Source: an uncultured Desulfatiglans sp. (lineage in GTDB: Bacteria; Desulfobacterota; DSM-4660; Desulfatiglandales; HGW-15). Taken from it: a stretch of 64,000 nt of DNA. Of this stretch, positions 5,713 to 53,101 are shown one piece after another. Under the pieces are notes generated by a model. It was not told where the DNA came from. It worked only from the letters and a program-made list of their open reading frames with translations, and searched no databases. The position numbers and the translations under genes were made by a program. Position 1 is the first letter of the stretch. Every line of letters starts with the position of its first letter. The stretch spans positions 13,872 to 77,871 of the forward strand of contig CAZCMD010000001.1 of the NCBI GenBank assembly GCA_964499695.1, in the 5' to 3' direction.

Positions 5713-5713
5713 C

Positions 5714-16081: not shown

Positions 16082-16083
16082 TT

Positions 16084-16755: not shown

Positions 16756-16833
16756 AACGTAATAACAGAATTGCACTTACCGCCTAATATATTGATTTAA
16801 TTGAATATAAAAAAAGGTATATGCCTGCATATT

Positions 16834-16849
16834 TGGTATATATTTTGCT
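16834..16849 (+). promoter_or_regulatory. sigma54-like promoter candidate (TGGTAT-N5-TTGCT) upstream of the cheZ-like gene
   Basis: TGGTATATATTTTGCT with correct GG/GC spacing but a C-to-T change at -24. Located 54 nt upstream of the ATG at 16903. Confidence 0.35.
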
Positions 16850-16902
16850 TTGTAATTAGAAAGATATTTTTTTGTATTGATCATTATGTGGAGGGTATTC
16901 TA

Positions 16903-23917: not shown

Positions 23918-24361
23918 TCATGCTGCTACCTGATGTGAAAGCCTTCTTATTTCCTGGGGAATAGCTGCATTTACAGGGGCAGGTTCTTCCTGTTCCGGCC
24001 GTATTCCTTCCCAGCCGCTTTTTAGTTCACTCAGTATATTTATACATTCGTCAAAAATAGAAAGGTTCTTTTGAATATCAGCGAGGAGGACTCTACTGGT
24101 TAGATATGTATACAATGAATCCAGGCTTGCCGCTATCTTTCCACCCTTATCCATATTAAGATTTGCCTGTAATTCACTTATTATAGCCAGGGTCCTCTTT
24201 ATTTTTTCAGACTTCTTTATGAAATCTTTATCTTTTAGATGATCTTTTGATTGTTCAAGGCATAAAATCGCTTTTTCATAACACATTATAACAAGTTCAA
24301 GTTTGCTTGCTGTTTCAATCGATGATCTTCTGTACTGCTTAAAAGCCTTTCCGTAATCCAT
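23918..24361 (-). CDS. fliS: flagellin-specific chaperone FliS
   Basis: YRRSSIETASKLELVIMCYEKAI and overall FliS-like length. GGGGG RBS. Confidence 0.88.
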   Translation of the reverse strand: MDYGKAFKQYRRSSIETASKLELVIMCYEKAILCLEQSKDHLKDKDFIKKSEKIKRTLAIISELQANLNMDKGGKIAASLDSLYTYLTSRVLLADIQKNLSIFDECINILSELKSGWEGIRPEQEEPAPVNAAIPQEIRRLSHQVAA

Positions 24362-24441: not shown

Positions 24442-26733
24442 CTAAGACAGTGTGCTTAACTGGCTCGAAAGCCACTGGCCCTCCGATTGCAGCTTTGAAA
24501 GAGCCAACTCCATTGCCACAAACCGGGCAATCATCGCTTCCTGTTTTCTGCTCAGCCGCGCGTTAACATTGTCAATGAGCTCTTCCTTGTTGTCGATCTG
24601 GTCAGATAGTGAATCAATCTTGTTTGCCACATATCCGTCAATTGAATCGGTTATATTAAATAGCGCCCTGTCAAAAAGCTCGGCAACACCTACTGTGAAT
24701 TTGATATTTCCCACATTCCCTGTGGTTGAGCCTGTATATTTAATAGTAAGTCCCGCAATATTGGCTGCATCTTTATCTCCGGTAAGCCTTTGTCCACTGC
24801 CTCTGGCAGCCTCTCCGTTTATGGTGCCTGCAACATCCTGTCCATTATTTACCGTTACAGGTGAACCTGCCCAGAGTGATGAATTTATTGTAAAACTGTT
24901 ACCACTGCCATAATCATCACTGCTTAAAATCAGGTGACCGGCGCCATCGTCCGATGCACCTACGCTTATGGCATATCTTCCTTCCTGGCCATCCCCATTA
25001 CTGGTTAGGACTGTCCCGAAAACAGATGCCCCGGTGCTGTCAAATGCAAATGTAAGGTTACTTGCACCCTCTTCATTATCCGTTAAAACAAGACGGCCAT
25101 TTACGTCAATGGAAGCGGATATATCATTACCAAAGGCAGACTCTATTTCAGTGAGAAGTCCCTGGATGGTGTCTGTGGAGGCACTCTCTATGGTGTATGA
25201 TCCTGAAATAGCGGACCCATCCCGTGCAGTACCTGTAAAACTGATTGCATTTCCATCAGAGAGAGTTGCCCCATCTATTGCAGCCCATGTTGTGGAAGAT
25301 GTAACAGCAGCACCGCCCGCTTGTACAGCATTATTCCCGACCAGTTTTTCAGTATAGACTGTTTCCAGTTCACTGTTTATAGCTGTAGTAATATCCGGTA
25401 TAGTCATATCTGAGGTAAGATTGATCACTGCTGTTTGATCTCCCTGCGATATGGTCAGGGTTTGATCACTCCCTAAAGTTCCGGAAATAGCTGAACTGGG
25501 GTCGGAAATACTTTTAGTAGCGGCCTGTGTTATATTTACAGCATAGTTACCGGCTTTTGTGTCATTTGTGCTGTATGCATATTCTATAGAACCGGAGGTT
25601 GAGGAGCCGTTAGCACTGAAAAGTTTTTGTATGTCACTGAAATTTGATTCCAGATATTCCCCAAGCTCTTCACTGTCAATACTCAGTTGATTATTTGAGT
25701 CCAGATGTATGCCGGCAAGTCCCATAATTGAAAATTTTGAAGACACTCCCCATACAGGATCAACGAGCAGAGATGCGAGGTCTGATTTTATAGATGAAAG
25801 TGTTCCGTCACCAAAGAGTACCGCCTGCGAATCTTTATCACTTTCATTATAGGTCTGCTGTTTATTAATATAGGAAGATACCTCATTATATGCATCCACA
25901 AATGTCTGTAGCTTTTTTTCAATCCCACTTGTATCTCTATCTATATTTAGGGTGATGGTTGTAGATGTATCCTCACCTGTAAGTTTAAAAGTTACACCTG
26001 TTAACACATCGTCTATGATATTATCCTCGCTTGTTACCGCTATTCCGTCCAGTAAAAATGAGGCATCCTTGCCTTCAACTAACGTATTTACCGTACCTAT
26101 TGAGTCTGTCCACCCCATAGCCTGTAGAATATCTGTGGCTGACCCGTTTTCAAGGCTTATCCCTTCTGCACCTGTATCGTCGCTTGTAAGGTTAAGGCGG
26201 TAGTCTGTATCACTGTATCGTATCAGGCTGGCTGTAACACCTGCACCTGCGTTGTTAATTTTATTTCTTAAATCATCAAGACCATCAGTCGCTGATACAG
26301 TTATGGTTTTGCCGTTTATAATTATATTGCCGTTGAATTCCGACCCAAGGTCATTTGTACCGCTTGTAAATGAAGCAGAACCAATTTTATGAGCTGTGGC
26401 TATATTATTAATGGTAATAGTATATGATCCTTTAACTGCAGAAGAGTCAGTTGATACACTTAGAAGATCTTCTGCATCAATATCTGCGTTGTCTGAGGTC
26501 ATGGAAGAGGAAAAGGTGTTAAAATTATCGGGTTTAGAAAGTGCAGCAGCAGCAGTTTTTAGAGAAAGAAGCTGGGTATTAAAAGAGCGCCATTCCGTAA
26601 GCTGGGTCTCATACTGGGTCTTCTGCTTTTCTAACATATTCACTGGCCTCTTTTCAATGGCCATCAATTGATCAACCATTGTTCTCCAGTCAAAACCGCT
26701 TGAAAGACCACTTATCTGATTTGTACTTGCCAT
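24442..26733 (-). CDS. fliD: flagellar filament cap protein FliD (HAP2), long form
   Basis: N-terminal ISGLSSGFDWRTMVDQLMAIEKRP, C-terminal RFVAMELALSKLQSEGQWLSSQL, and a long S/T/G-rich centre. AGGAG RBS. Confidence 0.9.
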   Translation of the reverse strand: MASTNQISGLSSGFDWRTMVDQLMAIEKRPVNMLEKQKTQYETQLTEWRSFNTQLLSLKTAAAALSKPDNFNTFSSSMTSDNADIDAEDLLSVSTDSSAVKGSYTITINNIATAHKIGSASFTSGTNDLGSEFNGNIIINGKTITVSATDGLDDLRNKINNAGAGVTASLIRYSDTDYRLNLTSDDTGAEGISLENGSATDILQAMGWTDSIGTVNTLVEGKDASFLLDGIAVTSEDNIIDDVLTGVTFKLTGEDTSTTITLNIDRDTSGIEKKLQTFVDAYNEVSSYINKQQTYNESDKDSQAVLFGDGTLSSIKSDLASLLVDPVWGVSSKFSIMGLAGIHLDSNNQLSIDSEELGEYLESNFSDIQKLFSANGSSTSGSIEYAYSTNDTKAGNYAVNITQAATKSISDPSSAISGTLGSDQTLTISQGDQTAVINLTSDMTIPDITTAINSELETVYTEKLVGNNAVQAGGAAVTSSTTWAAIDGATLSDGNAISFTGTARDGSAISGSYTIESASTDTIQGLLTEIESAFGNDISASIDVNGRLVLTDNEEGASNLTFAFDSTGASVFGTVLTSNGDGQEGRYAISVGASDDGAGHLILSSDDYGSGNSFTINSSLWAGSPVTVNNGQDVAGTINGEAARGSGQRLTGDKDAANIAGLTIKYTGSTTGNVGNIKFTVGVAELFDRALFNITDSIDGYVANKIDSLSDQIDNKEELIDNVNARLSRKQEAMIARFVAMELALSKLQSEGQWLSSQLSTLS

Positions 26734-26993: not shown

Positions 26994-27752
26994 CTAGCCG
27001 AACAGAGAGAGTACACCCTGTGAAGACATATTAGCCTGGGCAAGCATTGCAGTACCTGCCTGCAGTAGTATCTGGCTCTTTGTAAAGCTTGACATCTCAG
27101 CCGCCATATCAACATCCCTGATTACAGATTCAGCCGCAGTCTTGTTTTCAATGGTTGTTGCAAGGTTAGCTGCTGCATAAGAAAGCCTGTTCTGTGCAGC
27201 GCCGAGGCTGGCACGGGAATCACTTAATGTACCAGCAGCGGCTGTAACTAGCTCAATATCAGCGGCACCCAAACTTGTTGCACTAAGACCATCAAGACCC
27301 AAATCGGCTGAACTTACGGCGGACGCAGTATAACTTATCTGGCTAAAGGTTGTAGCATCTGCACCAACCTGAATGGTTCCGCTAAGTGATATACTATTCC
27401 CGATTCTGTCTATTTCAGAGAGAAGCTCCTGTGCTTCATCAGCGGCAGTACTACCACCCTGTGTGGCAAGTTCGCCAAGCCTGCTAAGGATATTTGCTAT
27501 CTGGTCATAGGCACCTTCAGCTACCTGAATACCGGCATTTGCCTGTTCAACGTTTCTTGCTGCCTGGGTCAGAGAGGCGATTTCAACCCTTGCTGCTGTA
27601 GAAATTGCCAGACCTGTTGCATCATCAGATGCTTTATTGATTCTGTAACCAGATGACAGCCTTTCCAGTGATTTAGCCATCATATTGCTGGAAATGGTTA
27701 AATTTTTGTGTGCGTTCAATGCCTCGATGTTGTGTTGTATTCTTAATCCCAT
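26994..27752 (-). CDS. fliC: flagellin (short, 252 aa)
   Basis: N-terminal LRIQHNIEALNAHKNL...LSSGYRINKASDDATGLAIS. C-terminal AESVIRDVDMAAEMSSFTKSQILLQAGTAMLAQAN. GGAGG RBS. Confidence 0.95.
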   Translation of the reverse strand: MGLRIQHNIEALNAHKNLTISSNMMAKSLERLSSGYRINKASDDATGLAISTAARVEIASLTQAARNVEQANAGIQVAEGAYDQIANILSRLGELATQGGSTAADEAQELLSEIDRIGNSISLSGTIQVGADATTFSQISYTASAVSSADLGLDGLSATSLGAADIELVTAAAGTLSDSRASLGAAQNRLSYAAANLATTIENKTAAESVIRDVDMAAEMSSFTKSQILLQAGTAMLAQANMSSQGVLSLFG

Positions 27753-28061: not shown

Positions 28062-29948
28062 TCAGACTGCAGGGGATATACATGATTCAAGTTTGTTGAT
28101 AATATTGTTAATCTTAGATGAACCATCAATACCGCTATTATTAATTGAATTCCCTATTTCGATAAAAATATTTTTTAGATCGTTAAAATTATCAATTGTC
28201 CTGTCCCTGTCAAGACCGAGGATTTCCAGTATTTTATCACAATATTTAACATGTGATTCAATATCACCTGATTTAAGTTTTATTTCACACATTGTAAGAA
28301 GATTTGACAAATCATTACCCTTGATGGCAAGTGCCTTTTCCAGAAAAATCTGTGCATCTTCATATTTCCCTATTGAAAAAGTTATCTCAGCCAGGATACT
28401 CCATGCTTCAGGGCTGTCGGGTCTAGATTCTGCAGCCTTCATAAAACATTGCAGGGCATATTCCAGTTTTCCTGAAGCTAAATAATAATTACCTAGTTTC
28501 AGAAGATCAGAATATGAGGAGCCATTTATATTTTTTGATGATCTTAATATTTCATATGCCTTACCATAATTCTCCTTCCCGAGGTATAATGAAAAAAGAC
28601 GATTTATAACCGTTTCACCTGTCCCCCCTGTTTCAACTACTCTTTCAAGTGCTCTAATTTCATCATCTGTGGAACCGCATTTCTTACTGTACTCAGCCAG
28701 CATATAGTTTGCGCCATACTCTTCCGGAACTTCTTTTAATGTCAGATCAAGATACTCCTTTGCGCAATCCATATCACCTGATTCATCTATATGATAAACA
28801 ACTATACCCCATAATGTCTTCCATCTGGTTTCAGACATGTTGCAGGCCTTTTTATAGTATTCCCGCATCTGGGAAAAATTATTTGTTGCATGGTATGCAT
28901 GGCCTATTAATACTTCTATGGCAGGCCCTTCATTCATCTGAATATGAGGTGATAAAGCTTCTTCCGGGCTGTTTTTTAAAAAAAGTTCCATATGGTAAAG
29001 AAATAATTTTCCAAAATTAATTACATTATGCCATTCACCCATAACTCTCGCAACAAATGTTAGTATATAATATGAGTCCATATGACCGGGATATCTTTCG
29101 AGAGCCTCATATGCATATTTTTTCGCTTGCTCATATTGTTTCAGTGAAAAAAATGCAGATGATATAATAAAATAAGTCCATGAGAAAATCGGATTTTTTA
29201 AATGGTGAGGTTTCAATAGATTGATACTTTTTTTAGCTTCTTCTATTGCTTCCTCAAATCTTTTACTTGAAAGGTATGATGCGCTAAGATAATGTCTGTT
29301 AAGAGGATTATCAGGATCATTTTCAATTTCTTTTTCTAAGAGCATTGTTGTCCTTAAAAATTTTTGCTCAGCCTTTATTTCGTCAAGGTCATAACCATAG
29401 TGCCATAGTTCAATGTCAGAATAGAATGATTTGGTGACTCCGAATATTATTTCATGAATGTCCCGCTCATAATGAATTTTTCGATTATTCCTGAACAACC
29501 TACCAACATTATGAATTGACTTCGATTTTCCTTTCATGCTTGGTGAATTGATTTTTACTAAAATCAAATCTGCATCTTTTGCTTTTTTAATTGCCGGTAG
29601 TATTTTTTCACCACTTCCCTTCATAAGCTCTTCATCGGCATCTACCTGGAATATCCAGTCACCTGTAGCATATTCAAAATAATGGTTTCTTGCCTCGCTG
29701 AAACTGTCCTGCCATGGATGAAGGTAGACCTTGTCAGTATATTTTTTGGCTATGTTAAGAGAATTGTCCTGCGAACCGGTATCTATGATGATTATTTCAT
29801 GCGCAATATCTTTTACACTTTTGAGACAGTTTTCCAGAAACCGCTCTTCATCCTTCACAATAAGACACACTGAGATGGCGGGCCTCTGATTTGATATTTC
29901 TCTCCTTGCCTTAACCTTATTCGATATTTTTTTATTTTTTTTTGTCAT
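28062..29948 (-). CDS. GT2 glycosyltransferase fused to C-terminal TPR repeats (GmaR-like; candidate protein/flagellin glycosyltransferase)
   Basis: N-terminal ISVCLIVKDEERFL...IIIIDTGSQDNS...WQDSFSEARN...QVDADEEL (GT-A, DxD). The C-terminal ~400 aa are repeated TPR-like helices. It is the gene immediately adjacent to fliC. Confidence 0.8.
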   Translation of the reverse strand: MTKKNKKISNKVKARREISNQRPAISVCLIVKDEERFLENCLKSVKDIAHEIIIIDTGSQDNSLNIAKKYTDKVYLHPWQDSFSEARNHYFEYATGDWIFQVDADEELMKGSGEKILPAIKKAKDADLILVKINSPSMKGKSKSIHNVGRLFRNNRKIHYERDIHEIIFGVTKSFYSDIELWHYGYDLDEIKAEQKFLRTTMLLEKEIENDPDNPLNRHYLSASYLSSKRFEEAIEEAKKSINLLKPHHLKNPIFSWTYFIISSAFFSLKQYEQAKKYAYEALERYPGHMDSYYILTFVARVMGEWHNVINFGKLFLYHMELFLKNSPEEALSPHIQMNEGPAIEVLIGHAYHATNNFSQMREYYKKACNMSETRWKTLWGIVVYHIDESGDMDCAKEYLDLTLKEVPEEYGANYMLAEYSKKCGSTDDEIRALERVVETGGTGETVINRLFSLYLGKENYGKAYEILRSSKNINGSSYSDLLKLGNYYLASGKLEYALQCFMKAAESRPDSPEAWSILAEITFSIGKYEDAQIFLEKALAIKGNDLSNLLTMCEIKLKSGDIESHVKYCDKILEILGLDRDRTIDNFNDLKNIFIEIGNSINNSGIDGSSKINNIINKLESCISPAV

Positions 29949-30951: not shown

Positions 30952-31290
30952 TTACCGGGTAAATATTTTAAAACCAAGAAATATTAGATTTTTATTAATT
31001 TCAGCATGGTAAGGCTCTGAAGTCGATATAAGAACCAGAGCTTCTTTTCTGTGTTGCTTAAATCTCTCTATTGAGAGAATTGGCACATCTAATAGTTTGT
31101 TTACACGAATCCTGTTATCTTTTAGAGAATACTGATCCAATATGGCAGGAGAGTTATCAATTGATCCATCATTAACACATATAATTTCGATATCTTGCAT
31201 TGGTTGTGCGAGCACGCTGTCAAGGCATTGATATATATATTTTTCTGCATTGTATACGGGTATTACAACGCTAACTTTTGGATTGTTCAT
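30952..31290 (-). pseudogene. truncated duplicate of the N-terminus of the downstream-facing GT2 gene (remnant)
   Basis: The first ~63 aa (MNNPKVSVVIPVYNAEKYIYQCLDSV...VNDGSIDNSPAILDQYS) parallel 31316-32677 (MNNPKISVVIPVYNGEKYLCQCLDSV...). About 155 nt are ~80% identical by eye (31131-31290 vs 32517-32677). The DxD region and everything after it are missing. Confidence 0.55.
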
Positions 31291-31315: not shown

Positions 31316-32677
31316 TTATCCCTTGATCCAGATATTTAATTCATTATCACGCCAGACAATTTTGTTTCGTGGAATACCATTGTTCTGGAGAAACTTATGT
31401 ACATCCTTAATAATACCTTTATCTGCAATTGTAATAACAATGTAATCGATGTTGTGTTTAATAATTTCAGTTGGGCTGCTTATTTCATGGGTTTCATCGG
31501 ATAATCGTTTGTAATTTTTATCTACCCAGATACATGGCTTACCATAACCCATTTCATTCATTACAGAAACAGCAATTTTGCCAAAACCACCAGCACCATA
31601 TATCGCAATTTTAGAATCCTTTTTGAGTAAATCGAGAGGAAACTGCTGCTCATAGTAGGCTTTTTGAAGAATGAAAATCTTTTGATTTTCTGATTTTGAA
31701 TCTTTCAGTAATAATGGATATGTACCAGCTAAATTTTTCTGATAATAGTTATTCCAGCGTTCTGTTTGGATGATTTTGATGAAATCTGATGAATCAATTT
31801 CATCAATGAAACGTTGGGTTTCAAATCTTATATTTTCCCAATTGTGACCTGATTCTCTGGAACGGTTGTACCAATAAAACATTTCTTTCAGTTCAATTCC
31901 GAGAATCAAATAACGCAATGAATGAGGTAAAAAATGTGTCCTTTCATCTAAAAGCCGGTACACCTCAAACAAGCATTCGAAATGATTCAAACAACCGCTA
32001 AAAAGCGATGTGGGGATATTTTTACGATACATAAGAACATAGTTATCTGAAAAGACTACTCTGGCTGCTTTCATAAGAACCAAATAATAAAATGTGTGAT
32101 CCTCGAAAGTATGCATAAAATCAAATTGTATTTTATTGTTTTGAATAAATGATAGTTTATATAAGCCATTCCATGGGGGGTAGCAAATACCATCGGGTGT
32201 AAAAGCCTCTGGATAATTTACAAAATTTATCACTTTGCCAAAGTATTCTTTGGGAATTTGAGATAAATTGTACGCAGTTTCATGTAAATTTTCTCCAGTT
32301 ATGGTATCCATTGTATGTACACGAAATTTTAAAATGTCTGCATCATATCTTTTAGCCTCTTCATAAACTGCTTCGTAGGCGTTATCTACGAGAAAATCAT
32401 CAGAGTCCAGAAAGTGGATATATTCGCCAGTGGCTATCTTCATTCCATTGTTACGGGCTGGCCCAAGATGCTGATTGTTTTGATGAATGACTTTTATTTG
32501 TTTATATTTTCGAGAGTACTCATCCAATATGGCTGGAGAATTATCAGTAGAGCCGTCATTAACACCGATTATCTCTATGCCTTTCATTGGTTGCATAATG
32601 ACACTATCTAGGCATTGACAAAGGTATTTTTCTCCGTTGTATACGGGTATCACAACGCTAATCTTTGGGTTATTCAT
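31316..32677 (-). CDS. GT2 glycosyltransferase with a C-terminal GxGxxG Rossmann-like module
   Basis: VVIPVYNGEKYL...NDGSTDNS...FLDSDDF. The C-terminal ~115 aa (KIAIYGAGGFGK...ISSP...IVWRD) are shared with 32702-33934. Confidence 0.8.
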   Translation of the reverse strand: MNNPKISVVIPVYNGEKYLCQCLDSVIMQPMKGIEIIGVNDGSTDNSPAILDEYSRKYKQIKVIHQNNQHLGPARNNGMKIATGEYIHFLDSDDFLVDNAYEAVYEEAKRYDADILKFRVHTMDTITGENLHETAYNLSQIPKEYFGKVINFVNYPEAFTPDGICYPPWNGLYKLSFIQNNKIQFDFMHTFEDHTFYYLVLMKAARVVFSDNYVLMYRKNIPTSLFSGCLNHFECLFEVYRLLDERTHFLPHSLRYLILGIELKEMFYWYNRSRESGHNWENIRFETQRFIDEIDSSDFIKIIQTERWNNYYQKNLAGTYPLLLKDSKSENQKIFILQKAYYEQQFPLDLLKKDSKIAIYGAGGFGKIAVSVMNEMGYGKPCIWVDKNYKRLSDETHEISSPTEIIKHNIDYIVITIADKGIIKDVHKFLQNNGIPRNKIVWRDNELNIWIKG

Positions 32678-36394: not shown

Positions 36395-38884
36395 TTAGCA
36401 CAACTGGCTTTTGATTTTCTGAAAGATATTTTTTCCTGCAGAACTGTCATTTATATTGGCATGCCTATGATATGCTTTTTGCCTTGACCCATTATCACCA
36501 TTATCGAACATGGCGAAAGCAAGATATTCAAGTAAAGCAGACTTGTCATTTTCATATATAATTGATTCAAAATATTTTTTGCATTTCTGATAAACAATTT
36601 TATTCTTGATAATAAACTCATCATCTTTTTTAATTGTTAGATCAATAGTTTCTACTCCTGTATCCGGCGAATATTTAAACAAAAATGGATAATTTTCAGA
36701 GAAAATGTAAATAAACTGATTATCTGTCCAGGCAAGTTTGACTTTTCCTCCACCCCCCCTATTATCGAGTAAAGCTTTTGACAGATCCGTTACTGTTTGC
36801 AGCTTTCTGGAAATAGGATCAAAACGTAATACCACGTTATGATAATGCGGGAAAAGGAAGATTTCATTTTTATAAATAACTGGTGTTACGAACTGACTTA
36901 AGTTGCCCGAGTCTGCCAGAGGAGATGGTGGAAGAGGGACAGCAGCATATGCTTTTCGTGTTTCTCTATTCCAGCATAGTAAAGAACCAGGACCCTTTGG
37001 AGTAATCCAATTGTTTTTGCCATCGAAACATATCCCTATAAAACCTAATTCAGATTTTGAAATAAAAATGATTTCTGCGGATTTGGATTCCATATCCAAT
37101 ACAAGTAATCTCCCATGAGTTTGAAGCGTTGCAACAGTATATTTTCCACATACATGTACTTGAGCAAAAAAGGGGATGGAATTTGAATCTATTTGCTTGT
37201 CTATACCCTCAATATTACTAAATTCACCTGTTGAGGAGTCATAACAAAGAATATCCGGATACAGCAAGCCAAAAAAGAAGATCATATTATTGTAAGTTGA
37301 ACATTTGGAAAATTTCCAATTCAGACGGTATGATTTTATTTTGGTGAAAAAAGATTTGGGTAACTCAATGCTGGAAAATTCTCCAGTTGCTATTGAATAT
37401 TTTGCAATCGACTTGGCAGACATAGGACAAAAATAGATATCGTCCTTTATTTTAACAGCAAAGCTGAATAGTCTTTTTTGATCAATATCTTCCCCAGGAA
37501 AGCTTCCCATATACTGCGGTTCCAGGGTTTTTTTATCAATCCTGAACAACCCGTTAAAATGATAAGCTGATACCCAATAAGCCCCATCATAATCTATAAA
37601 GCATTCAAAGCAGGCAGTATATTTGTCCATATCATCAAGATGCTCTTGAATGGCATGGTTTTGAATCATGACCGGTTTTCCAGTTAGGCCATACATCATT
37701 AGTAAAGATCCCCCATCCCCATAATAGGCATCAGTCAATGCAATAGCTCTGTGGAGATCAGATGTATCATCATAAATGCCCCAGCCATCGTTTATGTAAT
37801 TCGAAATGATTTGTTTATAGTCGTTTAGCAGTTGTGGCCGCATTGACTTATATGTAGCCTCATTGAGAGGATGAGGGCGCCACCACAAGGCTACATCGTC
37901 TCGGTTTTTAAAGGTTTCAAGAACATGGCGCAGTTTATTCAGATACTGTTCGTTGCCCGCAAGCAACGAACCTATGCTTGTGTTGTAAAAGATAACCTTC
38001 CTGCCATTGATTATCTTATGCCATTCATCAGGAAGATTGCAGTCTTCTTTCTTTGTGTTAATGACTTTGTCGAATTTTGGTGAACCCAGTGCAACAAACT
38101 TATCCTTGGGATTTCCGAATTTATTTCCATAAGCTTTTTTAAAAGCATGTATGTAAGTATTGCGTATTTTCTCGGATTGCACTATTACCGTGTGGGCATA
38201 CACACATCCGGGAAGGGTGCAGAAATGATCCGGCAGAGGAGCATTTTCATCAACCACGAAATATGGGACATAAACAAGCATATCAGTAAGGTTACGCAAC
38301 CGCTCAAAATAGAAATCGGGATGGACTGTAGTCACAAAATTATTTGCATCATAGGGCGCGAAGGATACTATAACATCAGGGTGGCGGGCAGCAATGTCAT
38401 ACGACTCCCAATCTGTGCACTCAATGTTATTTGAATAGCAGTCCGAACCTTCAAAGTGAGGTGTTCCTAATGAACCATCACTGTTCCTTTCAAACCAGGG
38501 AATTGGTATCCAGTAGGGATCACAGTTTGGATCATCTTTGGCTGCAAGATAAATGCTCTCTATACTATCACTCATGCTTGCATTATAAGATAAAAATGCT
38601 ATTTCAATTCTGTCAGGTTTAAGTTCGTCCTTTATACAGTTTTCAATTTTGAACAGATGCTTTATCAAGTCTTTGCTGTCAATTTCTCCGTTGTTTGCTT
38701 TGAATAATGCCTCATAGTAATCTTTCAAGAGCACTGCAGTTTGAGTTCCTTCACCTTTTATGCTTTCGATAAAATCATATATTGCCGATACAGCATCCTG
38801 ACAATCAGCATACAAACCGGATGACTGTGCCTGTTTAGTTTTTTGAAGCAGATCTAAAATTTGCCGCTGTTGATACTTTCGCAT
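36395..38884 (-). CDS. large two-part protein: TagF-like (CDP-glycerol glycerophosphotransferase-family-like) region plus a C-terminal ~7-bladed beta-propeller-like repeat region
   Basis: GSPKFD, VIFYNTS, WWRPHPL and LTDAYYGDGGSL parallel GFPRND, IIWMPTF, IIKPHPV and LITDYSSVAF in the clear TagF-like protein at 49381-50526. The C-terminal half has seven ~45-aa repeats of the type hhhhP...hhhhD..TGE...I. Confidence 0.45.
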   Translation of the reverse strand: MRKYQQRQILDLLQKTKQAQSSGLYADCQDAVSAIYDFIESIKGEGTQTAVLLKDYYEALFKANNGEIDSKDLIKHLFKIENCIKDELKPDRIEIAFLSYNASMSDSIESIYLAAKDDPNCDPYWIPIPWFERNSDGSLGTPHFEGSDCYSNNIECTDWESYDIAARHPDVIVSFAPYDANNFVTTVHPDFYFERLRNLTDMLVYVPYFVVDENAPLPDHFCTLPGCVYAHTVIVQSEKIRNTYIHAFKKAYGNKFGNPKDKFVALGSPKFDKVINTKKEDCNLPDEWHKIINGRKVIFYNTSIGSLLAGNEQYLNKLRHVLETFKNRDDVALWWRPHPLNEATYKSMRPQLLNDYKQIISNYINDGWGIYDDTSDLHRAIALTDAYYGDGGSLLMMYGLTGKPVMIQNHAIQEHLDDMDKYTACFECFIDYDGAYWVSAYHFNGLFRIDKKTLEPQYMGSFPGEDIDQKRLFSFAVKIKDDIYFCPMSAKSIAKYSIATGEFSSIELPKSFFTKIKSYRLNWKFSKCSTYNNMIFFFGLLYPDILCYDSSTGEFSNIEGIDKQIDSNSIPFFAQVHVCGKYTVATLQTHGRLLVLDMESKSAEIIFISKSELGFIGICFDGKNNWITPKGPGSLLCWNRETRKAYAAVPLPPSPLADSGNLSQFVTPVIYKNEIFLFPHYHNVVLRFDPISRKLQTVTDLSKALLDNRGGGGKVKLAWTDNQFIYIFSENYPFLFKYSPDTGVETIDLTIKKDDEFIIKNKIVYQKCKKYFESIIYENDKSALLEYLAFAMFDNGDNGSRQKAYHRHANINDSSAGKNIFQKIKSQLC

Positions 38885-38928
38885 ATTTTGATTCTATCCA
38901 TTTCTCATTTTAATCAGTCACGCTACTG

Positions 38929-39981
38929 CTAGCGATCCTGCCAGTCTGCAAGCATTCTTCGATACATATCACTTAACCCATACTTGTATATCCAACCCAA
39001 TGCCTTTAACTTGTCAATATTAAGTCTGTAACCCGTCTCTGACGCGTAGCCGTATTTATGTGTATCAGTTGCTGCTTTTAAGACAACTTTGATATTTCCA
39101 TCATAAACATCTTTCGCTATAATTTCCGCCATTTCCCGTATTGTTACACTGGCAGACGGGTTGGCTATGTTATAGGCCTCAATGTCCTTGCCCTTAATTA
39201 AAATTGTAAAAAGAGCCCTAACAGAATCTGAAATGTAGCAATAATTACCGCGTGATTTACCTTCTGTATGAAGCTCGATATCTGAACCTGCCAGTACGCT
39301 CCTCGCAAATTGCCCGAATATCCGAGTGTCATCTCTCGGGGTTCCTGCGCCGAAAGTTTGTGCCAACCGGGCAATTTTTACAGGAAGTCCATATTGATTT
39401 GCCCATGCAGTACACAATGCCTCGCATAACCTCTTACTTTCAGGATAACTGCTTCTAGGGTTTGAAAGGTCCAGGTAACCTAGATCACTTTCTGCTACTT
39501 CAGGAAGGTCTGTCTGGCCGTAAACCTCCATAGATGACAGGTACAGGAAACCGCTGCAGTAGTACTTGTGTGCCAGTTCCAGCATATTCCTTGTTCCATC
39601 GACAGATATCGAAATGACATCGGCAGGCCTTGCCACCATATCTGAGGATTTTGTATTCGCTGCACAGTGGAAGATATAATCAATCCGGCTGGGGAATTTG
39701 CTTGTATTTAACGGTTTGCGAATATCGCCAATTACGGTTATTATGCCAAAATCTTTTTCGAGCCTGGCACATTTTTCTATGTCTCGACCATGGGCAATAA
39801 TCAGTAGATTCAGGTTATATTTGGTATTTGCGGAAGCAAGGACATGAACAAGCATTCCGCCTATAAGTCCGGTTGCCCCGGTCACCATGACCGTAGTGCC
39901 ATAGAACTCATTCCAGGAGATGTTAGTATCGGACAATATTTCGTTTATGTCTGCTTTAAGCGTTGGTCCGTTCAAACTCAT
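38929..39981 (-). CDS. NAD-dependent epimerase/dehydratase-family (extended SDR) protein
   Basis: VTGATGLIGG and YPESK (YxxxK). Located 3 nt downstream of the cytidylyltransferase gene. Confidence 0.8.
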   Translation of the reverse strand: MSLNGPTLKADINEILSDTNISWNEFYGTTVMVTGATGLIGGMLVHVLASANTKYNLNLLIIAHGRDIEKCARLEKDFGIITVIGDIRKPLNTSKFPSRIDYIFHCAANTKSSDMVARPADVISISVDGTRNMLELAHKYYCSGFLYLSSMEVYGQTDLPEVAESDLGYLDLSNPRSSYPESKRLCEALCTAWANQYGLPVKIARLAQTFGAGTPRDDTRIFGQFARSVLAGSDIELHTEGKSRGNYCYISDSVRALFTILIKGKDIEAYNIANPSASVTIREMAEIIAKDVYDGNIKVVLKAATDTHKYGYASETGYRLNIDKLKALGWIYKYGLSDMYRRMLADWQDR

Positions 39982-39984
39982 CTG

Positions 39985-40704
39985 CTAACCTAATATCTCA
40001 GCATTTTCTTCGGCATCATAAAGTGCTTTAAAAATATAAAAATCAGAGGGAAGGGTTACCTTTATATTATTGCTGCCACATTCTACTGTGTGGAGTTTAA
40101 CGCCATAATGGAACATCATTGATGCTGTATCAATAAATGATGACTTTCCATCTGTTCTCGCTTTTTCATGATATTTCAGGATTTCATTAAAATAGAATGA
40201 TTGGGGAGCTTTAGCAACTCTCATTGTTTCACGGTTGCCCATGTCGTCAATACAGCTTTTTTTATTGATATGAATAAACGTTTCATGTTCACGGGCAACT
40301 GTAACGCAGTTTCCGTATTGTTTTACCATCTCAATATTTTTTGAAATAAGACTCTTATCAATAAAAGGTCTGACACCGTCATTTATCAATATAATGGAAT
40401 CTCCTGTTGTTCCTGATTCTCTTAATGTGCACAAACCATTATATATGGACTGCTGGCTTGTATCACCCCCGGTTGTCAGCCATTTGACTTTTTCAATCTG
40501 CCAGCGCTTGATTTCCTTTTTCAGTTCTTTTTCCCATCCGGAAATGCACACGACAGCAATTGAATCAATGTCGGGGTGCATTTCAAAACGCTCAAGTGTA
40601 TATATCAATATTGGTTTGCCAGCATATTTTAAAAATTGCTTAGGTAAAGATTTGCTGCTCATACGTATGCCGGTGCCGCCTGCAAAAATAAGAGCAATGT
40701 TCAT
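39985..40704 (-). CDS. IspD/TarI-family cytidylyltransferase (candidate CDP-alditol synthase)
   Basis: MNIALIFAGGTGIRMSS..PKQFL..GKPIL. 239 aa, the length and pattern of TarI/IspD. Confidence 0.75.
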   Translation of the reverse strand: MNIALIFAGGTGIRMSSKSLPKQFLKYAGKPILIYTLERFEMHPDIDSIAVVCISGWEKELKKEIKRWQIEKVKWLTTGGDTSQQSIYNGLCTLRESGTTGDSIILINDGVRPFIDKSLISKNIEMVKQYGNCVTVAREHETFIHINKKSCIDDMGNRETMRVAKAPQSFYFNEILKYHEKARTDGKSSFIDTASMMFHYGVKLHTVECGSNNIKVTLPSDFYIFKALYDAEENAEILG

Positions 40705-40813
40705 TTAGTTGGACCTCTCATTGTCTGATAGGTTATTGAACTCAAAACAGATAATATTTACATCATTAAATTTATAATAACGAGTTAAAATTATATACCC
40801 TATATTATAATTA

Positions 40814-41887
40814 TTATAAAGCGTATAATATGGTGTCAACTGTCCAATTTGTATAATGGCGGATAAAAAATTTGTAATCCATATTTAAATCTATAATATA
40901 TTCGGGTATTTCTATTATATCTTCAGATTTGTGGTATATGCTTATCGCTAATTTGGGTTTAAAGCGTTTTATGGTCTTTTTTGCTCCCTTTAATGCCTCA
41001 AGCTCAGCGCCTTCAATATCCATCTTAATAAAAGTTACACCATCTTCTTCAACAATATCATCAAGAGCTACAACCGGAATCCGGGCATTTCCGGATTCCA
41101 CGATACAAGAACCTCCTCCACCGTATGAATTAAAGTCTAAAGTGTCATTACCATTCCACAAACCGGCCTCATATAATTTGACTTCACATGCGTTAAATTC
41201 ATTAACTTGTTTTTGGCAAATCTCTATATTTTTTTTATCCGGCTCAAAGGCATATATCTTTTTAAGGGTTTTGCATTGCCGGGCCAATCGGTTACTGCTA
41301 GTAAAATCAAAACTCCCGGCATCAACAAAGATTTCATCGTTCACATAATTTACCAAGCTCGGTTCAAAATATTGATCATTATGATTTGCCTGAAAATTTA
41401 TCCAATCCAGACCATTAATTATATCTTCTTCATCTATGCCATGCCCGGTAAAGAACTCTATCAAGTCTCTGTGATATTGCTTCCAGACAGCCAGGATTAT
41501 AATAGAGTTTTCGGAATATTTTGAAACAAGGGTTTGTGGGGATATTACCGGTATTCCATTAACACTGCTTGCCTGTAAATCACCATTTACATCTGAAAAG
41601 CATTCTATTTTTGCATTTTTAAGCAGATTTTCTATGATCTGTCCAACCTTGCCGGCGCCATAAATGATTATTCTTTTCCTGTTTTTTAATGACTCATCAA
41701 TATAGTCGACAAATTGCCTGACTTTTTCATTTAAAAATAAAGATGGCATCGAAGGTAAATTTTTTTTTACCATGTTTTCTATATGCACTATGTCATTGGT
41801 AATAGAATAGAGAAGCCGGTATACAAAAATATCTTTCGACTCCTTGTCTTCCAGCTCTCTATATATTTTTATTGCTGTTTTAATCAT
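40814..41887 (-). CDS. FkbM-family methyltransferase with an N-terminal GxGxxG module
   Basis: FVDAGSFDF...AFEPDKKN...IKMDIEGAELEALKGAKKTIKRFKPKLAISIYHK. N-terminal IIIYGAGKVGQ...ISP module. The ATG at 41887 overlaps the stop of the upstream gene (ATGA); the track start is a TTG. Confidence 0.8.
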   Translation of the reverse strand: MIKTAIKIYRELEDKESKDIFVYRLLYSITNDIVHIENMVKKNLPSMPSLFLNEKVRQFVDYIDESLKNRKRIIIYGAGKVGQIIENLLKNAKIECFSDVNGDLQASSVNGIPVISPQTLVSKYSENSIIILAVWKQYHRDLIEFFTGHGIDEEDIINGLDWINFQANHNDQYFEPSLVNYVNDEIFVDAGSFDFTSSNRLARQCKTLKKIYAFEPDKKNIEICQKQVNEFNACEVKLYEAGLWNGNDTLDFNSYGGGGSCIVESGNARIPVVALDDIVEEDGVTFIKMDIEGAELEALKGAKKTIKRFKPKLAISIYHKSEDIIEIPEYIIDLNMDYKFFIRHYTNWTVDTILYAL

Positions 41888-47015: not shown

Positions 47016-47747
47016 TTACTCTATAATATCAATAAGCTTTAGCCGCCGCGAAATCTCAGCGATTTCATCTATCGTGTTTTCCCCTATATCTTCAGAGAGG
47101 AGAATAGCATTCTCCTTCAGTATATTTACCGGCCAGTCCCACCATTTTGATGAGTCGATCCTTCTTTCGGTTTCATCATTGAAGCGCATTTTCAGCTTTT
47201 TAGCCGGTGCACCTGCAACCACGGAATAAGCCGGAACATTTTTTGTAACAACGGATCCAGCCCCTATTACAGCGCCGTTGCCAACAGACACACCCGCCAA
47301 TATGATAGCACCGGCCCCAATCCAAACCCCATTACCTATGATCGTGCGATCCCGCGGAGGGGATGGTATGTCAATCCCAAATTTTTCCTTCCAGTTGATG
47401 CCGGTCTGCATGCTTACACTGCGCATATTGTGATTAACCGCCCCAATGCTGACATTCCATGACAAAGAACACATCCGCCCGATTTGTGAATGTATAACTC
47501 GAGTATTCTTGTTTGTTGAAGAACCAAGACCGATTTCTGAAAATGAAATTAAACAATCCATATCTATACGATTGTGTCCTTCGAGTTTTGAATAGGCAAT
47601 ACGGGACCTGTCACATAATTTCGCGTCATTGCCGATTTCCGAACATGTTATATATATATCATTATATATGATGACATCCTGGCCTACAGTAGTGTCTTTA
47701 ACAACAGTATTTCTACCAATGTCTAAATTATTTTTTAAATTATTCAC
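47016..47747 (-). CDS. hexapeptide-repeat (LbH) acetyltransferase
   Basis: [50 protein letters not shown] start overlapping the upstream stop (GTGA). Confidence 0.8.
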
Positions 47748-49384
47748 TGTACCGGCATCCTTTCAGAGTTCATTTCTCTAACTCCAAAAATTATATCAAG
47801 CACCACGATCCATTCTTCAGCTCTTTTAAAGTTATCATCCCTCCAGGAAATTGCGCCAAAAATCATCGACACAATGTCAATAAATACGGCGTCGTCAAGC
47901 ATTGAGCGGTCCGCATGCATGCCAAAAAAATCTTTCAATTCCTCAAAATAATCCTTTCTGTTACCGCCGAAGTGCAAGAGTTCATATGCAATAAAGCGGG
48001 AGAACTCCATTACAAACGGGGCGTAATATCCCAAGGGATCTATAAGTTTAATATCATCGTTTTCAATCAGGGCATTGTTCCCTGATATATCGCCATGGAT
48101 GAGAAATCTTTCAGACGGCAGTCCGCGATACTTCAAGAGTGCGCTCTCAAGGAGTTGCCTGCAAAATGCTTTTTTATATCCTACTGTAAGAGCCATACGG
48201 TATTTATCCTCCAACTCGACAACATAATCCTGAATGCAGGTATCAATACCGCCTTCCGGGGCCATCTTCATAGAGGAACAGATTCGCCTAAATAGACCTT
48301 CCAGCAAGTAGCGGTGTTTTGAAAAAGCCGTATAGTCACCTGGTATAATTCTTTTAAGCAACATGGCATAACGTTCATCGTCGCTGTCTATAAGCTTCGC
48401 TGTAATATCAGATGATAGGGTTTCTAAAGTGAACTTTTCCCGTTCATATCGTCCAGTGAATGGAGGTATTACCTTAATAATAACCGCACCAAATCTTTCA
48501 GAAGATGCCTCAAAAACCAGCCCAAAATTCGATGCCGGGTGAAGCGTGTAGTCGGTTATATCCCATTTTGCCAACAAATATTCCACATCAGCATCCAATG
48601 TCCTAGCCCACTCCCGAACTTCCTTACGCCATACTATGCGCAACCTCTGAAAAAGGTCTAAAGCAACATCATTGCTATGAGCTCTGAACTGACGCTTTTT
48701 TTCACGATGGGCCAGTAACGCTTCTACAATCGCAATATCATGGGGGTATATTATCTTAATGTAGTCAGTAAAATCCCAATAAAGCTTTGTTTTGACATTT
48801 GAAGGCAGTTGGTGCGCAATGACAGTCAAAAGTGAATTTTCATTAAAATGTTTCACCAGCATGTCGAAGTGATATCCGTGTGGATTTTGTATCATGTAGT
48901 ACCTTGAACGGTCCACGCTGGGCGTGTCATAGCACCCGAGACTGGTTGGGATTTTTGATGTGGTTAGCACTACGTCATATCGGTCCAAATACTCAAAAAA
49001 CTTATCAAACAACGCGCCGGTAACCAATGGATTGACTGCATCTGTCACAACTAGCTTATCGCAATCGTAATGATTTCCAATGTAATGAAGGACTTTATTG
49101 AAAGACTTATTCCTTTCCTCACCGCCCTCAATAATCACGATGCCATATGTATGTCGGAGTTTATTTATATAATCCCCTCTGGCTGCTACGATAATCTCAT
49201 CAGCTTTGCGTGATGCAAGGGCAGCACGGATCGTGTATTCAATTACCGGCCTACCGTTGACCAAGTGATACTGCTTTGGAACTGGATCACCGAACCTGTT
49301 GCCTACACCGCTTGCAAGTATCACAATCAAGTTATTTTTCATGGATGCTATACCCTGCCTTCTTAAATTATGTTGACCTGTCAC
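47744..49384 (-). CDS. bifunctional IspD-like cytidylyltransferase plus APH/choline-kinase-like phosphotransferase
   Basis: N-terminal [18 protein letters not shown]...GRPVI. C-terminal [23 protein letters not shown] (HGDxxxxN kinase loop). The start is either the GTG at 49384 (GTGA overlap) or the ATG at 49342. Confidence 0.7.
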
Positions 49385-50526
49385 AAATCAAGAATATCCA
49401 GGAGCCTTGCGGAATTCCGATTATCTTGATAGGTGTGAATGTAGTTTTTTAGTTTTGCCCTTTGGTCAGCAAAAATGTCATTTCCATTTGCCACATCGCT
49501 CATGAATTCGATTAAATCCTTTGTGGACCAAATTTTCTTTCCGGGCATATAGTCTAAAGGGTTTTCAACAATAAAACCGGGCGTATATTCATTAAAATCA
49601 TCTAATGTGTAACCGATCGGCCTGTCGAGGAGGAGATAATCGAAAGCGACAGAGGAGTAATCAGTTATCAAAGCATCTGTTTCGGCCATTAATTGATATA
49701 GGTTGATTCCTCGTTTGCGCAGTATTTCATTTGACATCAGGAGGATATTTTCTGACTGAACGATGGTGATGGCAGAAAGGTCTTGAACCGGGTGCGGTTT
49801 AATGATCAATAAAATGTCCTTCTGACTAAGACAGTCATCTAACAGTTCTAAGTCTCCTGCAGTACTCAGCACAGGAAGTCCCAAAGCATTTCCTTTCCCC
49901 GAATCATTACAGTCTATGTAACGGTGTTTTCTGAAAGTTGGCATCCATATAATAGTTATTGTATGCTGTCTTCCGCATGTTATTTTTGCTAGTTGTCCGT
50001 TGGGGGAAAACAGATCGTCATTGCGCGGAAAACCACAGACAAAGTACTTTGACGGATTAACACCAAACCTTTCCGAGGATCCGGCAATCAGATTTTTAGA
50101 GGTGCATAGAAAACGGTCGACATTTTCATCGTAATCACTGAGATACTTTGTAGCATTTTTTAGCCCAAAAGCACCATGAGTAAGGAAGATGCCAATTTGG
50201 CTTTTTTTTCTCTTTCCTATGACCATACCGTCGGCGATCAAATATCTTGCCCTTGTCAGCAAAATTAGATCAGCTATGGTTTTGTGGCTTCTTCGGCTTC
50301 TATCCATGACGGTGACATTAGATACGTTGATGTTTTGCCACTCTAGAACGTCACGAACAAGCCACACCAGTCTGTATTTTTTGTTAAGACCCCGACGCAG
50401 CATCTCTCTATAAAGAGCGCCAGTATTACTGTCAAAATCATCTTCACTTTCAAGGATGATAATATTTCCAAGTGGCAGATATTTTAACAAATTATCAAGG
50501 CAAAATATTTTATTCATTATAGTCAT
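49381..50526 (-). CDS. CDP-glycerol glycerophosphotransferase (TagB/TagF) family protein
   Basis: CGFPRNDDL, IIWMPTFR, IIKPHPV and LITDYSSVAFDYLLLDRP. Confidence 0.8.
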   Translation of the reverse strand: MTIMNKIFCLDNLLKYLPLGNIIILESEDDFDSNTGALYREMLRRGLNKKYRLVWLVRDVLEWQNINVSNVTVMDRSRRSHKTIADLILLTRARYLIADGMVIGKRKKSQIGIFLTHGAFGLKNATKYLSDYDENVDRFLCTSKNLIAGSSERFGVNPSKYFVCGFPRNDDLFSPNGQLAKITCGRQHTITIIWMPTFRKHRYIDCNDSGKGNALGLPVLSTAGDLELLDDCLSQKDILLIIKPHPVQDLSAITIVQSENILLMSNEILRKRGINLYQLMAETDALITDYSSVAFDYLLLDRPIGYTLDDFNEYTPGFIVENPLDYMPGKKIWSTKDLIEFMSDVANGNDIFADQRAKLKNYIHTYQDNRNSARLLDILDL

Positions 50527-50571
50527 TCGTAAATTCGTTTGGTGCGTATTATATTGTCTTTGTTCACTGTC

Positions 50572-51915: not shown

Positions 51916-51937
51916 GTTATATCCTTAACTACCCGAT

Positions 51938-53083: not shown

Positions 53084-53101
53084 TATAATCTCCCTTTAAT
53101 T

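Follow-up and report, generated by a model that had tools for sequence, protein, structure and literature searches.

The characterised TagF-like enzymes are polymerases of wall teichoic acids or capsules (PMC10901376, PMC5974469). In TagF and TarL, the first of two invariant histidines (TagF H444 and TarL H300), which is preceded by a tryptophan, is the proposed catalytic base and is essential in both enzymes, and the second (TagF H584 and TarL H433), which lies in a [KR]PHP motif, contacts the alpha-phosphate of the donor (PMC10901376). TagF-like proteins have also been connected with flagella: CD0244 of Clostridium difficile is proposed to move phosphothreonine from cytidine diphosphate (CDP)-threonine to the N-acetylglucosamine of flagellin, as is PA1091 of Pseudomonas aeruginosa (PMC10714395). 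In a recently defined route to CDP-alditols, HS5.18 of Campylobacter jejuni joins cytidine triphosphate (CTP) and fructose-6-phosphate, and HS5.17 then reduces CDP-6-D-fructose to CDP-6-D-glucitol; pairs of PF01128 and PF01370 proteins are the signature of this CDP-ketose route (PMC10918830). Here we describe a three-gene module in which such a pair accompanies an unusual TagF-like protein, found in a stretch of 64,000 nucleotides (hereafter the window) from contig CAZCMD010000001.1 of an uncultured Desulfatiglans sp. (assembly GCA_964499695.1).

The module is encoded on the minus strand and comprises, in this order, an IspD/TarI-like cytidylyltransferase of 239 amino acids (39985..40704; Pfam IspD E 2.8e-34), an extended short-chain dehydrogenase/reductase (SDR) of 350 amino acids (38929..39981; Pfam Epimerase E 1.2e-42), and a TagF-like phosphotransferase of 829 amino acids with an inserted beta-propeller (36395..38884 including the stop codon), here called T829. 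Only 3 nucleotides (cag) separate the stop codon of the IspD-like gene from the start of the SDR gene, which lies upstream of T829, and T829 starts 44 nucleotides beyond the SDR gene. On balance, we favour the reading that the three genes constitute a CDP-alditol donor and transferase module that adds alditol phosphate to a glycan, the likeliest acceptor being the O-glycan of flagellin.

Relationship of T829 to the TagF family

The AlphaFold2 model of T829, which was built on 117 homologues (predicted local distance difference test, pLDDT, 92.8; predicted template-modelling score 0.87), combines a GT-B fold with a seven-bladed propeller. In this model, residues 1-87 (38624..38884, minus strand, as for all segments of T829) form a four-helix bundle (helices 3-21, 25-43, 48-64 and 70-87, pLDDT >90), which is conserved across the family. 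Two Rossmann-type domains follow as a GT-B-like catalytic region at residues 93-410 (37655..38608), with the acceptor side at approximately 93-235 and the TagF-like donor side at approximately 260-410. The propeller occupies residues 426-748 (36641..37609) and is inserted ahead of the terminal helices, which are modelled at 753-828 and close the protein (residues 753-829, 36398..36628). These helices carry a motif of the DGxxGxxIYxYxK type, here NDSSAGKNIFQKIK, in which G817 and I820 are nearly invariant, and judged by the profile alignment described below they are the homologue of the C-terminal helix of the TagF family.

Because a Foldseek search with the full-length model returned only propellers, which hid TagF, residues 1-415 were modelled again alone (pLDDT 94.6). 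This half gave 112 matches in the PDB at E <= 1e-3, and all 50 of those listed are enzymes of the GT-B fold; TagF (3l7i_D) stands at rank 25 (E 2.1e-5, TM-score 0.41), alongside LpxB, HepE and OtsA. Given this ranking, the fold of the N-terminal half is GT-B, yet TagF is not singled out by fold alone.

Kinship with TagF is singled out instead by profile alignment, in which the motif blocks are in register. The reference profile was made from 77 members of the family of TagF381, a canonical TagF-like phosphotransferase of 381 amino acids (49381..50526, minus strand; Glyphos_transf E 1.6e-41 over the full model) that belongs to the first CDP module of the window and whose family invariants are H117, K123, T197, H245, D289 and S291. 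Pairwise BLASTP between T829 and TagF381 is weak (26% over 107 amino acids, E 4e-4). When the two families are compared by hhalign, residues 230-408 of T829 are aligned with residues 136-307 of TagF381 (probability 81%, E 1.2e-5), and GSPKFD is paired with GxPRND, KVIFYNTS with KIIWMPTF, WWRPHP with xIKPHP and TDAYYGDxSS with TDALITDYSS. If the T829 profile is restricted to family members that naturally lack a propeller, the alignment (probability 95%, E 3.2e-8) extends over 245 columns as far as the C-terminal end, the DGxxGxxIYxY motif included.

In all 117 sequences of the family alignment, GSPKFD keeps K270 and D272, RPHP keeps R336, P337, H338 and P339, and D390 and S393 are likewise unchanged. 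H338, in R336-P337-H338-P339, is aligned with the invariant H245 of the TagF381 family, and the donor-side motifs GxPRxD and TDYSS are matched in register by GSPK270FD272 and TDAYYGD390xxS393. On the acceptor side, no similarity to the TagF family is detectable before residue 212 of T829. If the alignment is extended by 5-6 residues, the invariant Y205-V-P207-Y208 falls at the position of T-H117-G. D106 and D179 of the N-terminal domain are likewise invariant, and the conserved residues of this domain follow predicted beta-strands, i.e., they would lie where the cleft of a GT-B enzyme is lined. The GAF/PL motif of polyol selectivity in TarL and TagF (PMC10901376) is not applicable to T829, in which the corresponding loop could not be aligned.

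No hydrophobic segment was found in T829 by hydropathy (maximum 19-residue Kyte-Doolittle mean 1.31), and a reading of T829 as a membrane protein or as a protein with a signal peptide was rejected on this ground. A protein without a transmembrane segment fits a cytoplasmic enzyme.

The inserted propeller

Assignment of secondary structure by DSSP in the AlphaFold2 model gives seven four-stranded blades, at residues 426-460, 473-507, 525-558, 573-607, 615-650, 669-697 and 715-748. The best Foldseek superposition is with the seven-bladed virginiamycin B lyase (Vgb; TM-score 0.76-0.79, E ~1e-10 to 3e-11), with 11-13% identity. Sequence profiles recognise this half poorly: Kelch_6 matches one blade only (20.4 bits, under the cut-off of 25.3), WD40 gives no match in T829, and the threshold of DUF6923 is passed only by the homologues P0010 and P0108. 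The half is also weakly conserved, with no invariant residue in the 117 sequences, and its conserved positions resemble residues of the blade core.

Homologues of approximately 500 amino acids lack residues roughly 420-800 and keep the final helix with the C-terminal motif, and the propeller is therefore regarded as an insertion within the TagF-like domain. Such short homologues at four related loci (L011, L068, L079 and L081) share the same SDR and IspD neighbours. Since relatives that lack a propeller stand beside the same donor genes, use of the donor does not depend on the propeller. We propose that it docks the acceptor, either flagellin or the flagellin glycan. A search of the other proteins of the window and of 80 related loci for the same propeller turned up only a tandem paralogue in locus L031, so that there is as yet no evidence for a portable "flagellin-docking" module. 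At L031 (contig WRDH01000003.1, metagenome-assembled genome, MAG, of an Oscillospiraceae), two full-length paralogues of T829 lie in tandem at 7403-9973 and 10001-12529, and their propeller halves are only ~23% identical to that of the window.

A preliminary description of this DNA, made from its sequence before the present analysis, had given the coordinates, the lengths and the 3-nucleotide gap exactly. It had also pointed to four motif blocks common to T829 and TagF381, which the hhalign alignment places in register, and to seven repeats with a propeller-like pattern, which become seven blades in the model. The structure prediction and fold search that it proposed gave a GT-B fold for the N-terminal half, with TagF among the matches, and virginiamycin B lyase for the propeller. 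Its view of T829 as a fusion of TagF and propeller holds as regards the presence of both domains and needs correction as regards their arrangement, since the propeller is inserted and not joined at the C-terminus. Likewise, its assignment of T829 as TagF-like is borne out by the donor-side motifs, including the invariant PHP histidine, and does not extend to the first catalytic histidine, which is not recognisable. Its remark that no characterised fusion of this type was known agrees with the literature searched, although the architecture proves to be very common and already carries automatic annotations.

Predicted genes for synthesis of the donor

The cytidylyltransferase is a clear member of the IspD family (PF01128, 119 bits with a cut-off of 27). 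Its best relatives in the PDB are the TarI structures 4jis, 3f1c and 6xhp (E 1e-30 to 1e-28), and with the NCBIfam model of the D-ribitol-5-phosphate cytidylyltransferase TarI (NF001183) it scores 163.4 bits over the full length, so that the cut-off of 166 is not reached. Its predicted reaction is the formation of a CDP-ketose from CTP and a ketose phosphate.

The SDR contains an N-terminal G35ATGLIG (GxxGxxG) motif and a catalytic Y179PESK183 (YxxxK) motif. Its best PDB match is C. jejuni HS5.17 (8v4g and 8v4h; E 4.9e-42, 30% identity), and the next family follows at 2e-24. Among the 19 ligand contacts of HS5.17 (PMC10918830), 11 are identical in the SDR; those kept include S100, R164 and T227, which bind CDP, Y167 and K171, which serve catalysis, E140, Q196 and R208, which hold the hydroxyls of the hexitol, and M139. 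The matching residues T110, S112, M151, E152, R176, Y179, K183, R220 and T239 of the SDR are invariant in 17 orthologues that are linked to T829 homologues. From its sequence, the SDR is thus predicted to reduce a CDP-ketose to a CDP-alditol at the expense of NAD(P)H. Because HS5.17 is its nearest relative and the ligand contacts are conserved, the ketose phosphate is likely to be cytidylylated first and reduced afterwards. The conserved contacts to the hexitol make us lean weakly towards a C6 alditol, with a pentitol as a somewhat less probable candidate.

Distribution of the T829 family and its genomic neighbours

Relatives of T829 amount to at least 3,809 protein clusters (90%-identity clusters, E <= 1e-3), most of which are ~830 amino acids long and 38-54% identical to it. 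They bear existing labels such as "WD40 repeat domain-containing", "CDP-glycerol glycerophosphotransferase family", "streptogramin lyase" and "hypothetical". The possibility that the fusion arose as an artefact of assembly or a frameshift was rejected, because hundreds of homologues are likewise ~830 amino acids long. A genome scan with one genome per species found at least 368 loci, many of them from MAGs. The majority belong to Oscillospiraceae, Family XIII/Anaerovoracaceae, Defluviitaleaceae, Lachnospiraceae, Paenibacillus and Cohnella, and a few are found in Holophagaceae, Fibrobacterota, Treponema and Desulfatiglandales.

Neighbouring genes were counted in the 80 best loci. Directly downstream of the T829 homologue, the gene product matches NTP_transf_3 in 29, IspD in 22, CTP_transf_like in 4 and CTP_transf_3 in 3 of the 63 loci scanned; these counts overlap, as one gene may match more than one of the families, and most of the 63 loci have a nucleotidyl- or cytidylyltransferase gene in this position. 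An SDR of PF01370 is encoded immediately upstream at 17 of 45 loci scanned. Close orthologues of both the SDR (51-62% identical) and the IspD-like protein (45-51%) are present together in 17 of the 80 loci, where the order is SDR-T829-IspD, as opposed to IspD-SDR-T829 in the window. That the linkage survives rearrangement argues for functional coupling of the three proteins.

Among the 42 related loci with full flanks, flagellin, FliS or FliD is encoded within 10 kb in 14, and in 18 if a homologue of the glycosyltransferase GT2-TPR, which adjoins the flagellin gene in the window, is also counted; homologues of GT2-TPR are present in 25 of the 80 loci. Among the cultured carriers of the triad, Cohnella endophytica (L026) and Paenibacillus sacheonensis (L030) encode flagellin ~8 kb upstream, and at the locus of Paenibacillus cellulosilyticus (L015) the 10 kb of flank contain no flagellar gene. 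At nine Paenibacillus and Cohnella loci (L043, L044, L050, L062, L063, L065, L069, L070 and L072), a gene for UDP-galactopyranose mutase takes the place of the cytidylyltransferase gene directly downstream of the T829 homologue. This neighbour hints at an acceptor that contains galactofuranose and at a donor made elsewhere in the genome. At two related loci, the gene directly upstream matches the Cas12f1-like TNB domain, and one of these also matches the helix-turn-helix of IS605 OrfB; they are TnpB-type mobile-element genes beside glycosylation genes.

Genomic setting of the module

In the window, every gene from 24442 to 58642 lies on the minus strand. A region of flagellar filament and chemotaxis genes (CheA-CheW-REC, CheB, CheZ, FliS, FliD and flagellin) is followed directly by ~30 kb of glycosylation genes. 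The flagellin (252 amino acids, 26994..27752, minus strand; Flagellin_N E 1e-24, Flagellin_C E 3e-23), which presumably carries the acceptor glycan, is encoded beside FliD (24442-26733) and FliS (23918-24361). The adjoining gene encodes GT2-TPR (28062..29948, minus strand), which consists of a glycosyltransferase family 2 (GT2) domain (Glycos_transf_2 E 2e-21) and tetratricopeptide repeats (TPR) and presumably starts glycosylation of flagellin. Besides GT2-TPR, the island encodes several GT2 and family 4 (GT4) glycosyltransferases, methyltransferases, a GT2-GT4-methyltransferase of 1282 amino acids, DegT and SIS proteins, an ATP-grasp enzyme and TagF381. No gene for a flippase, Wzx/Wzy, an ABC exporter or a polyprenyl-phosphate priming transferase was seen among the island products scanned.

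The IlvD encoded in the window shares 95% identity with its counterpart in a Desulfatiglans sp. MAG, and the host is therefore taken to be a Desulfatiglans-like diderm of the Thermodesulfobacteriota. The guanine-plus-cytosine content of the island at 28-48 kb is 32-39%, versus 43-47% in the housekeeping flanks (1-8000 and 50000-54000). The low value, together with the occurrence of the T829 family mainly in Clostridia and Paenibacillaceae, suggests that the island was acquired horizontally, at least in part.

A promoter-like site (TTGACA-18-AATAAT, 11 of 12 matches; 40810..40839, minus strand) lies 105 nucleotides upstream of the start of the IspD-like gene, and a transcription unit of IspD, SDR and T829 may begin there; the site is a consensus match only, and such sites are no commoner in the region than in shuffled controls. 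No terminator-like site was found between the three genes.

Several other genes of the window may be recorded here. The chemotaxis cluster (9309-17991, plus strand) encodes a CheA of 1079 amino acids fused to CheW-like and receiver domains, CheB, and a protein of 396 amino acids with a C-terminal CheZ domain. An open reading frame of 112 amino acids (30952-31290, minus strand) beside a full-length GT2 gene (31316-32677) covers only the first 57 of the 168 positions of the GT2 model and appears to be a shortened duplicate or the remnant of a gene. The partner of TagF381 in the first CDP module is a protein of 546 amino acids (47744-49384, minus strand) with an IspD domain (residues 20-224) and a C-terminal part of 317 amino acids. 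This part gives faint kinase-like matches only (methylthioribose kinase 2olc, E 0.009; RIO1, E 0.016), and the protein may join a kinase to a cytidylyltransferase for synthesis of another CDP donor. Directly upstream of TagF381, and unusually for a glycosylation island, a class II 3-deoxy-D-arabino-heptulosonate 7-phosphate synthase is encoded (50572-51915).

Proposed mechanism

In the mechanism that we infer from the gene structure, homology, conserved residues and linkage, together with the predicted folds, the IspD/TarI-like enzyme would first join CTP and a ketose phosphate of central metabolism, possibly fructose-6-phosphate or xylulose- or ribulose-5-phosphate, to form a CDP-ketose. The extended SDR, by homology with HS5.17, would then use NAD(P)H to reduce this product at its keto group; CDP-glucitol, CDP-mannitol, CDP-arabinitol and CDP-ribitol are candidates for the resulting CDP-alditol. 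Finally, T829 in the cytoplasm would hold the CDP-alditol in its TagF-like C-terminal Rossmann domain by means of GSPKFD, RPHP with H338, and DxxSS, and would pass the alditol phosphate to a hydroxyl with release of cytidine monophosphate and formation of a phosphodiester. The hydroxyl most likely belongs to the O-glycan that GT2-TPR and other transferases would build on flagellin before its export. On the acceptor side, the invariant Y205-x-P207-Y208 loop, D106, D179 and H188 may substitute for the W-H dyad, and the propeller ahead of the last helix would dock flagellin or its glycan.

Evidence against the proposed mechanism and alternative explanations

Several observations weigh against this mechanism. 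The match of T829 to Pfam Glyphos_transf (PF04464), a search that the preliminary description had proposed, stays below the gathering score (18.8 vs 22.1 bits, E 8.5e-4) and spans residues 249-408, i.e., profile positions 146-292 only. In favour of the donor-side homology, P0001 (25.5 bits) and P0037 (28.9 bits), two homologues of T829, pass the threshold, again with the donor half only, and a precomputed PF04464 match exists for roughly a third of the listed homologues. T829 has no match in NCBIfam, and a search of PDB sequences with T829 and its family profile returned nothing but chance matches to Fab chains (E > 0.04). The best structural neighbours of the N-terminal half are UDP-N-acetylglucosamine (UDP-GlcNAc) 2-epimerases (E 5.8e-8, TM-score ~0.5), which stand ahead of TagF, and all TM-scores are just 0.4-0.5. 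The catalytic-base histidine of the W-H dyad of TagF and TarL is not recognisable in T829, whose N-terminal domain contains no invariant histidine (H188 is conserved in 114, H231 in 103 and H220 in 90 of the 117 sequences). In the literature searched, of which coverage was incomplete, neither a flagellin glycan with alditol phosphate nor a characterised family member or a paper on the TagF-propeller architecture was found. In addition, because flagellar genes are near only about one third of the loci with full flanks, some members may serve other glycoconjugates.

The last point leads to the alternative that the same CDP-alditol chemistry serves another acceptor, such as a capsule, lipopolysaccharide or O-antigen, an S-layer glycan or a wall polymer, possibly with formation of a teichoic-acid-like polymer. 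The low frequency of filament genes within 10 kb, the polymerase activity of the characterised TagF-like enzymes (PMC10901376, PMC5974469) and the supply of capsules by HS5.17/HS5.18 and Mnp1/Mnp2 (PMC10918830) speak for it, and it plausibly fits part of the T829 family. In the window, however, the module lies inside the unbroken minus-strand run of glycosylation genes that starts at flagellin and GT2-TPR, T829 is without a membrane segment and the scanned island products include no export or priming functions; moreover, a flagellar gene in one third of the loci is, by our estimate, far above chance expectation. We regard another acceptor as rather improbable for this locus. A somewhat smaller probability is given to a route of the TarI/TarJ or Bcs1 type, in which the SDR would reduce ribulose-5-phosphate to ribitol-5-phosphate before the cytidylyltransferase makes CDP-ribitol. 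The near-threshold score on the ribitol-5-phosphate cytidylyltransferase model and the TarI enzymes among the best PDB relatives would agree with such a route, whereas the reductase is an extended SDR of the nucleotide-sugar type (PF01370), its nearest solved relative acts on CDP-6-fructose, and the residues corresponding to the cytidine and pyrophosphate contacts S100, R164 and T227 of HS5.17 do not vary between this SDR and the 17 linked orthologues. The reductases of those routes are of other types, TarJ being a medium-chain dehydrogenase and the Bcs1 reductase a classical SDR. The pairing of PF01128 with PF01370 also marks the CDP-ketose route (PMC10918830).

It is very unlikely that the N-terminal half is a different GT-B enzyme, for example one related to nucleotide-sugar 2-epimerases or an ordinary glycosyltransferase, with TagF motifs that are convergent or vestigial. 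This explanation would account for the lead of the UDP-GlcNAc 2-epimerases in Foldseek, the lack of a recognisable W-H dyad and the sub-threshold Glyphos_transf score. Nevertheless, no match to Pfam Epimerase_2 or to a glycosyltransferase family was found at E < 0.01, homology to the true TagF-like family is seen in profile-profile comparison across the whole donor domain as well as the C-terminal helix, the histidine of PHP does not vary, and cytidylyltransferases of the IspD, MobA and TagD types make up the overwhelming majority of the neighbours. Least probable of all is a bifunctional protein whose propeller is itself catalytic, as a lyase, hydrolase or lactonase resembling Vgb or SMP-30. 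Its superposition onto virginiamycin B lyase and the automatic annotation of some homologues as "streptogramin lyase" could be read in this way, but the half is poorly conserved and without an invariant residue, its identity with Vgb is low, and propeller-less homologues exist with the same neighbours.

Addition of alditol phosphate to a flagellin glycan is thus the explanation we prefer. The preliminary interpretation as a whole is partly supported: it had tied the module to synthesis of a CDP donor, which is supported by the recurrence of cytidylyltransferase and SDR neighbours in related loci, and had placed it in a flagellar island of a diderm, which turns out to be a flagellin glycosylation island of a Desulfatiglans-like organism. 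Its analogy with Bcs1/Acs1, in which reduction precedes cytidylylation and yields CDP-ribitol, is not the best fit for an SDR that is nearest to a CDP-6-D-fructose reductase. Nor is formation of a teichoic-acid-like polymer supported; for a TagF-like phosphotransferase that acts on a flagellin glycan, CD0244 and PA1091 offer a published precedent (PMC10714395).

Implications

A broader and tentative proposal, which we hold with less confidence, is that T829 represents a large unrecognised class of cytoplasmic alditol-phosphotransferases directed at protein-linked glycans, with a TagF-type donor site, a new catalytic loop on the acceptor side (Y-x-P-Y, with Asp/His replacing the W-H dyad) and a flagellin-docking propeller. 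Members of such a class might place glucitol, mannitol or ribitol phosphate on the flagella of Clostridia, Paenibacillaceae and, by horizontal transfer, diderm sulfate reducers. If so, a teichoic-acid-type phosphotransferase would have been retargeted from lipid-linked polymers to a protein-linked glycan by exchange of the acceptor half and insertion of a propeller, and a residue different from the canonical histidine may act as its catalytic base. A new flagellin modification, namely a sugar alcohol in phosphodiester linkage, would then be predicted in Firmicutes of the gut and soil and in some diderms, and thousands of proteins now labelled "WD40 repeat protein", "streptogramin lyase" or "hypothetical" would gain a function. 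Flagellin glycans influence motility, filament assembly, and recognition by phages and the immune system. The IspD/SDR pair would take the recently defined CDP-ketose reductase route beyond capsules, and cultured strains of Paenibacillus and Cohnella with the same triad make these predictions directly testable.

Comparison with known systems

What is new in the module is the insertion of the propeller, the large number of family members and the divergence of the acceptor half, in which no W-H dyad is recognisable; its TagF-like donor domain and CDP-ketose reductase route are of known kinds, as is the presence of a TagF-like enzyme in a gene cluster for flagellin glycans. T829 shares with Staphylococcus epidermidis TagF (3l7i) and S. 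aureus TarL (PF04464) the GT-B fold, the C-terminal helix motif, the donor-side Rossmann motifs GxP[RK]xD, [KR]PHP and DxxSS (PMC10901376) and the linkage to genes for synthesis of CDP-polyols. In contrast to these enzymes, T829 has no recognisable W-H dyad, an N-terminal domain without detectable sequence similarity, a four-helix N-terminal bundle, a propeller ahead of the last helix and no evident membrane-binding segment, and it is encoded in a flagellin glycosylation island instead of a wall teichoic acid locus. The resemblance of residues 426-748 to Vgb and other seven-bladed propellers is one of fold only, and no conserved catalytic set is shared.

Cps1B, Cps3D and Bcs3, which are capsule polymerases of Gram-negative bacteria, resemble T829 in that a TagF-like domain of a diderm is combined with accessory non-catalytic repeats and with further modules (PMC5974469, PMC10299916). 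Their accessory domain is an appended TPR domain, whereas that of T829 is a propeller inserted in the catalytic domain, and they polymerise exported capsules, unlike the role proposed for T829. The donor pair of the window has counterparts in HS5.18/HS5.17, which makes CDP-6-D-glucitol, and in Mnp1/Mnp2 of Streptococcus pneumoniae, which makes CDP-mannitol, both of which are adjacent pairs of PF01128 and PF01370 proteins (PMC10918830). The 30% identity between the SDR and HS5.17 is the same as that between HS5.17 and Mnp2. D212 of HS5.17 is replaced by glutamine in the SDR, and R56 and R233 have no conserved counterpart at the aligned positions. These two pairs feed capsules, whereas the pair of the window is coupled to T829 in a flagellar island. 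AbpA/AbpB, which makes CDP-arabinitol, is a further pair of PF01128 protein and PF01370 extended SDR.

In mammals, ISPD (CRPPA) makes a CDP-alditol, and FKTN and FKRP place ribitol phosphate on the O-glycan of alpha-dystroglycan. The module of the window would follow the same logic, and if the proposal above is true the T829 class would be a bacterial counterpart of this modification, its use on flagellin having not been found reported. To our knowledge, FKTN and FKRP are not GT-B or TagF-like enzymes, and the likeness at the transferase step is one of analogy, not homology. For flagellin itself, the nearest systems are CD0244 and the phosphotransferase domain of PA1091 (FgtA), which are TagF-like, lie in flagellin glycan clusters and have a cytidylyltransferase next door, as does T829 (PMC10714395). 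Their proposed donor is CDP-threonine, whereas that of T829 is predicted to be a CDP-alditol made by the IspD and SDR proteins, and no propeller is mentioned for either (PMC10714395).

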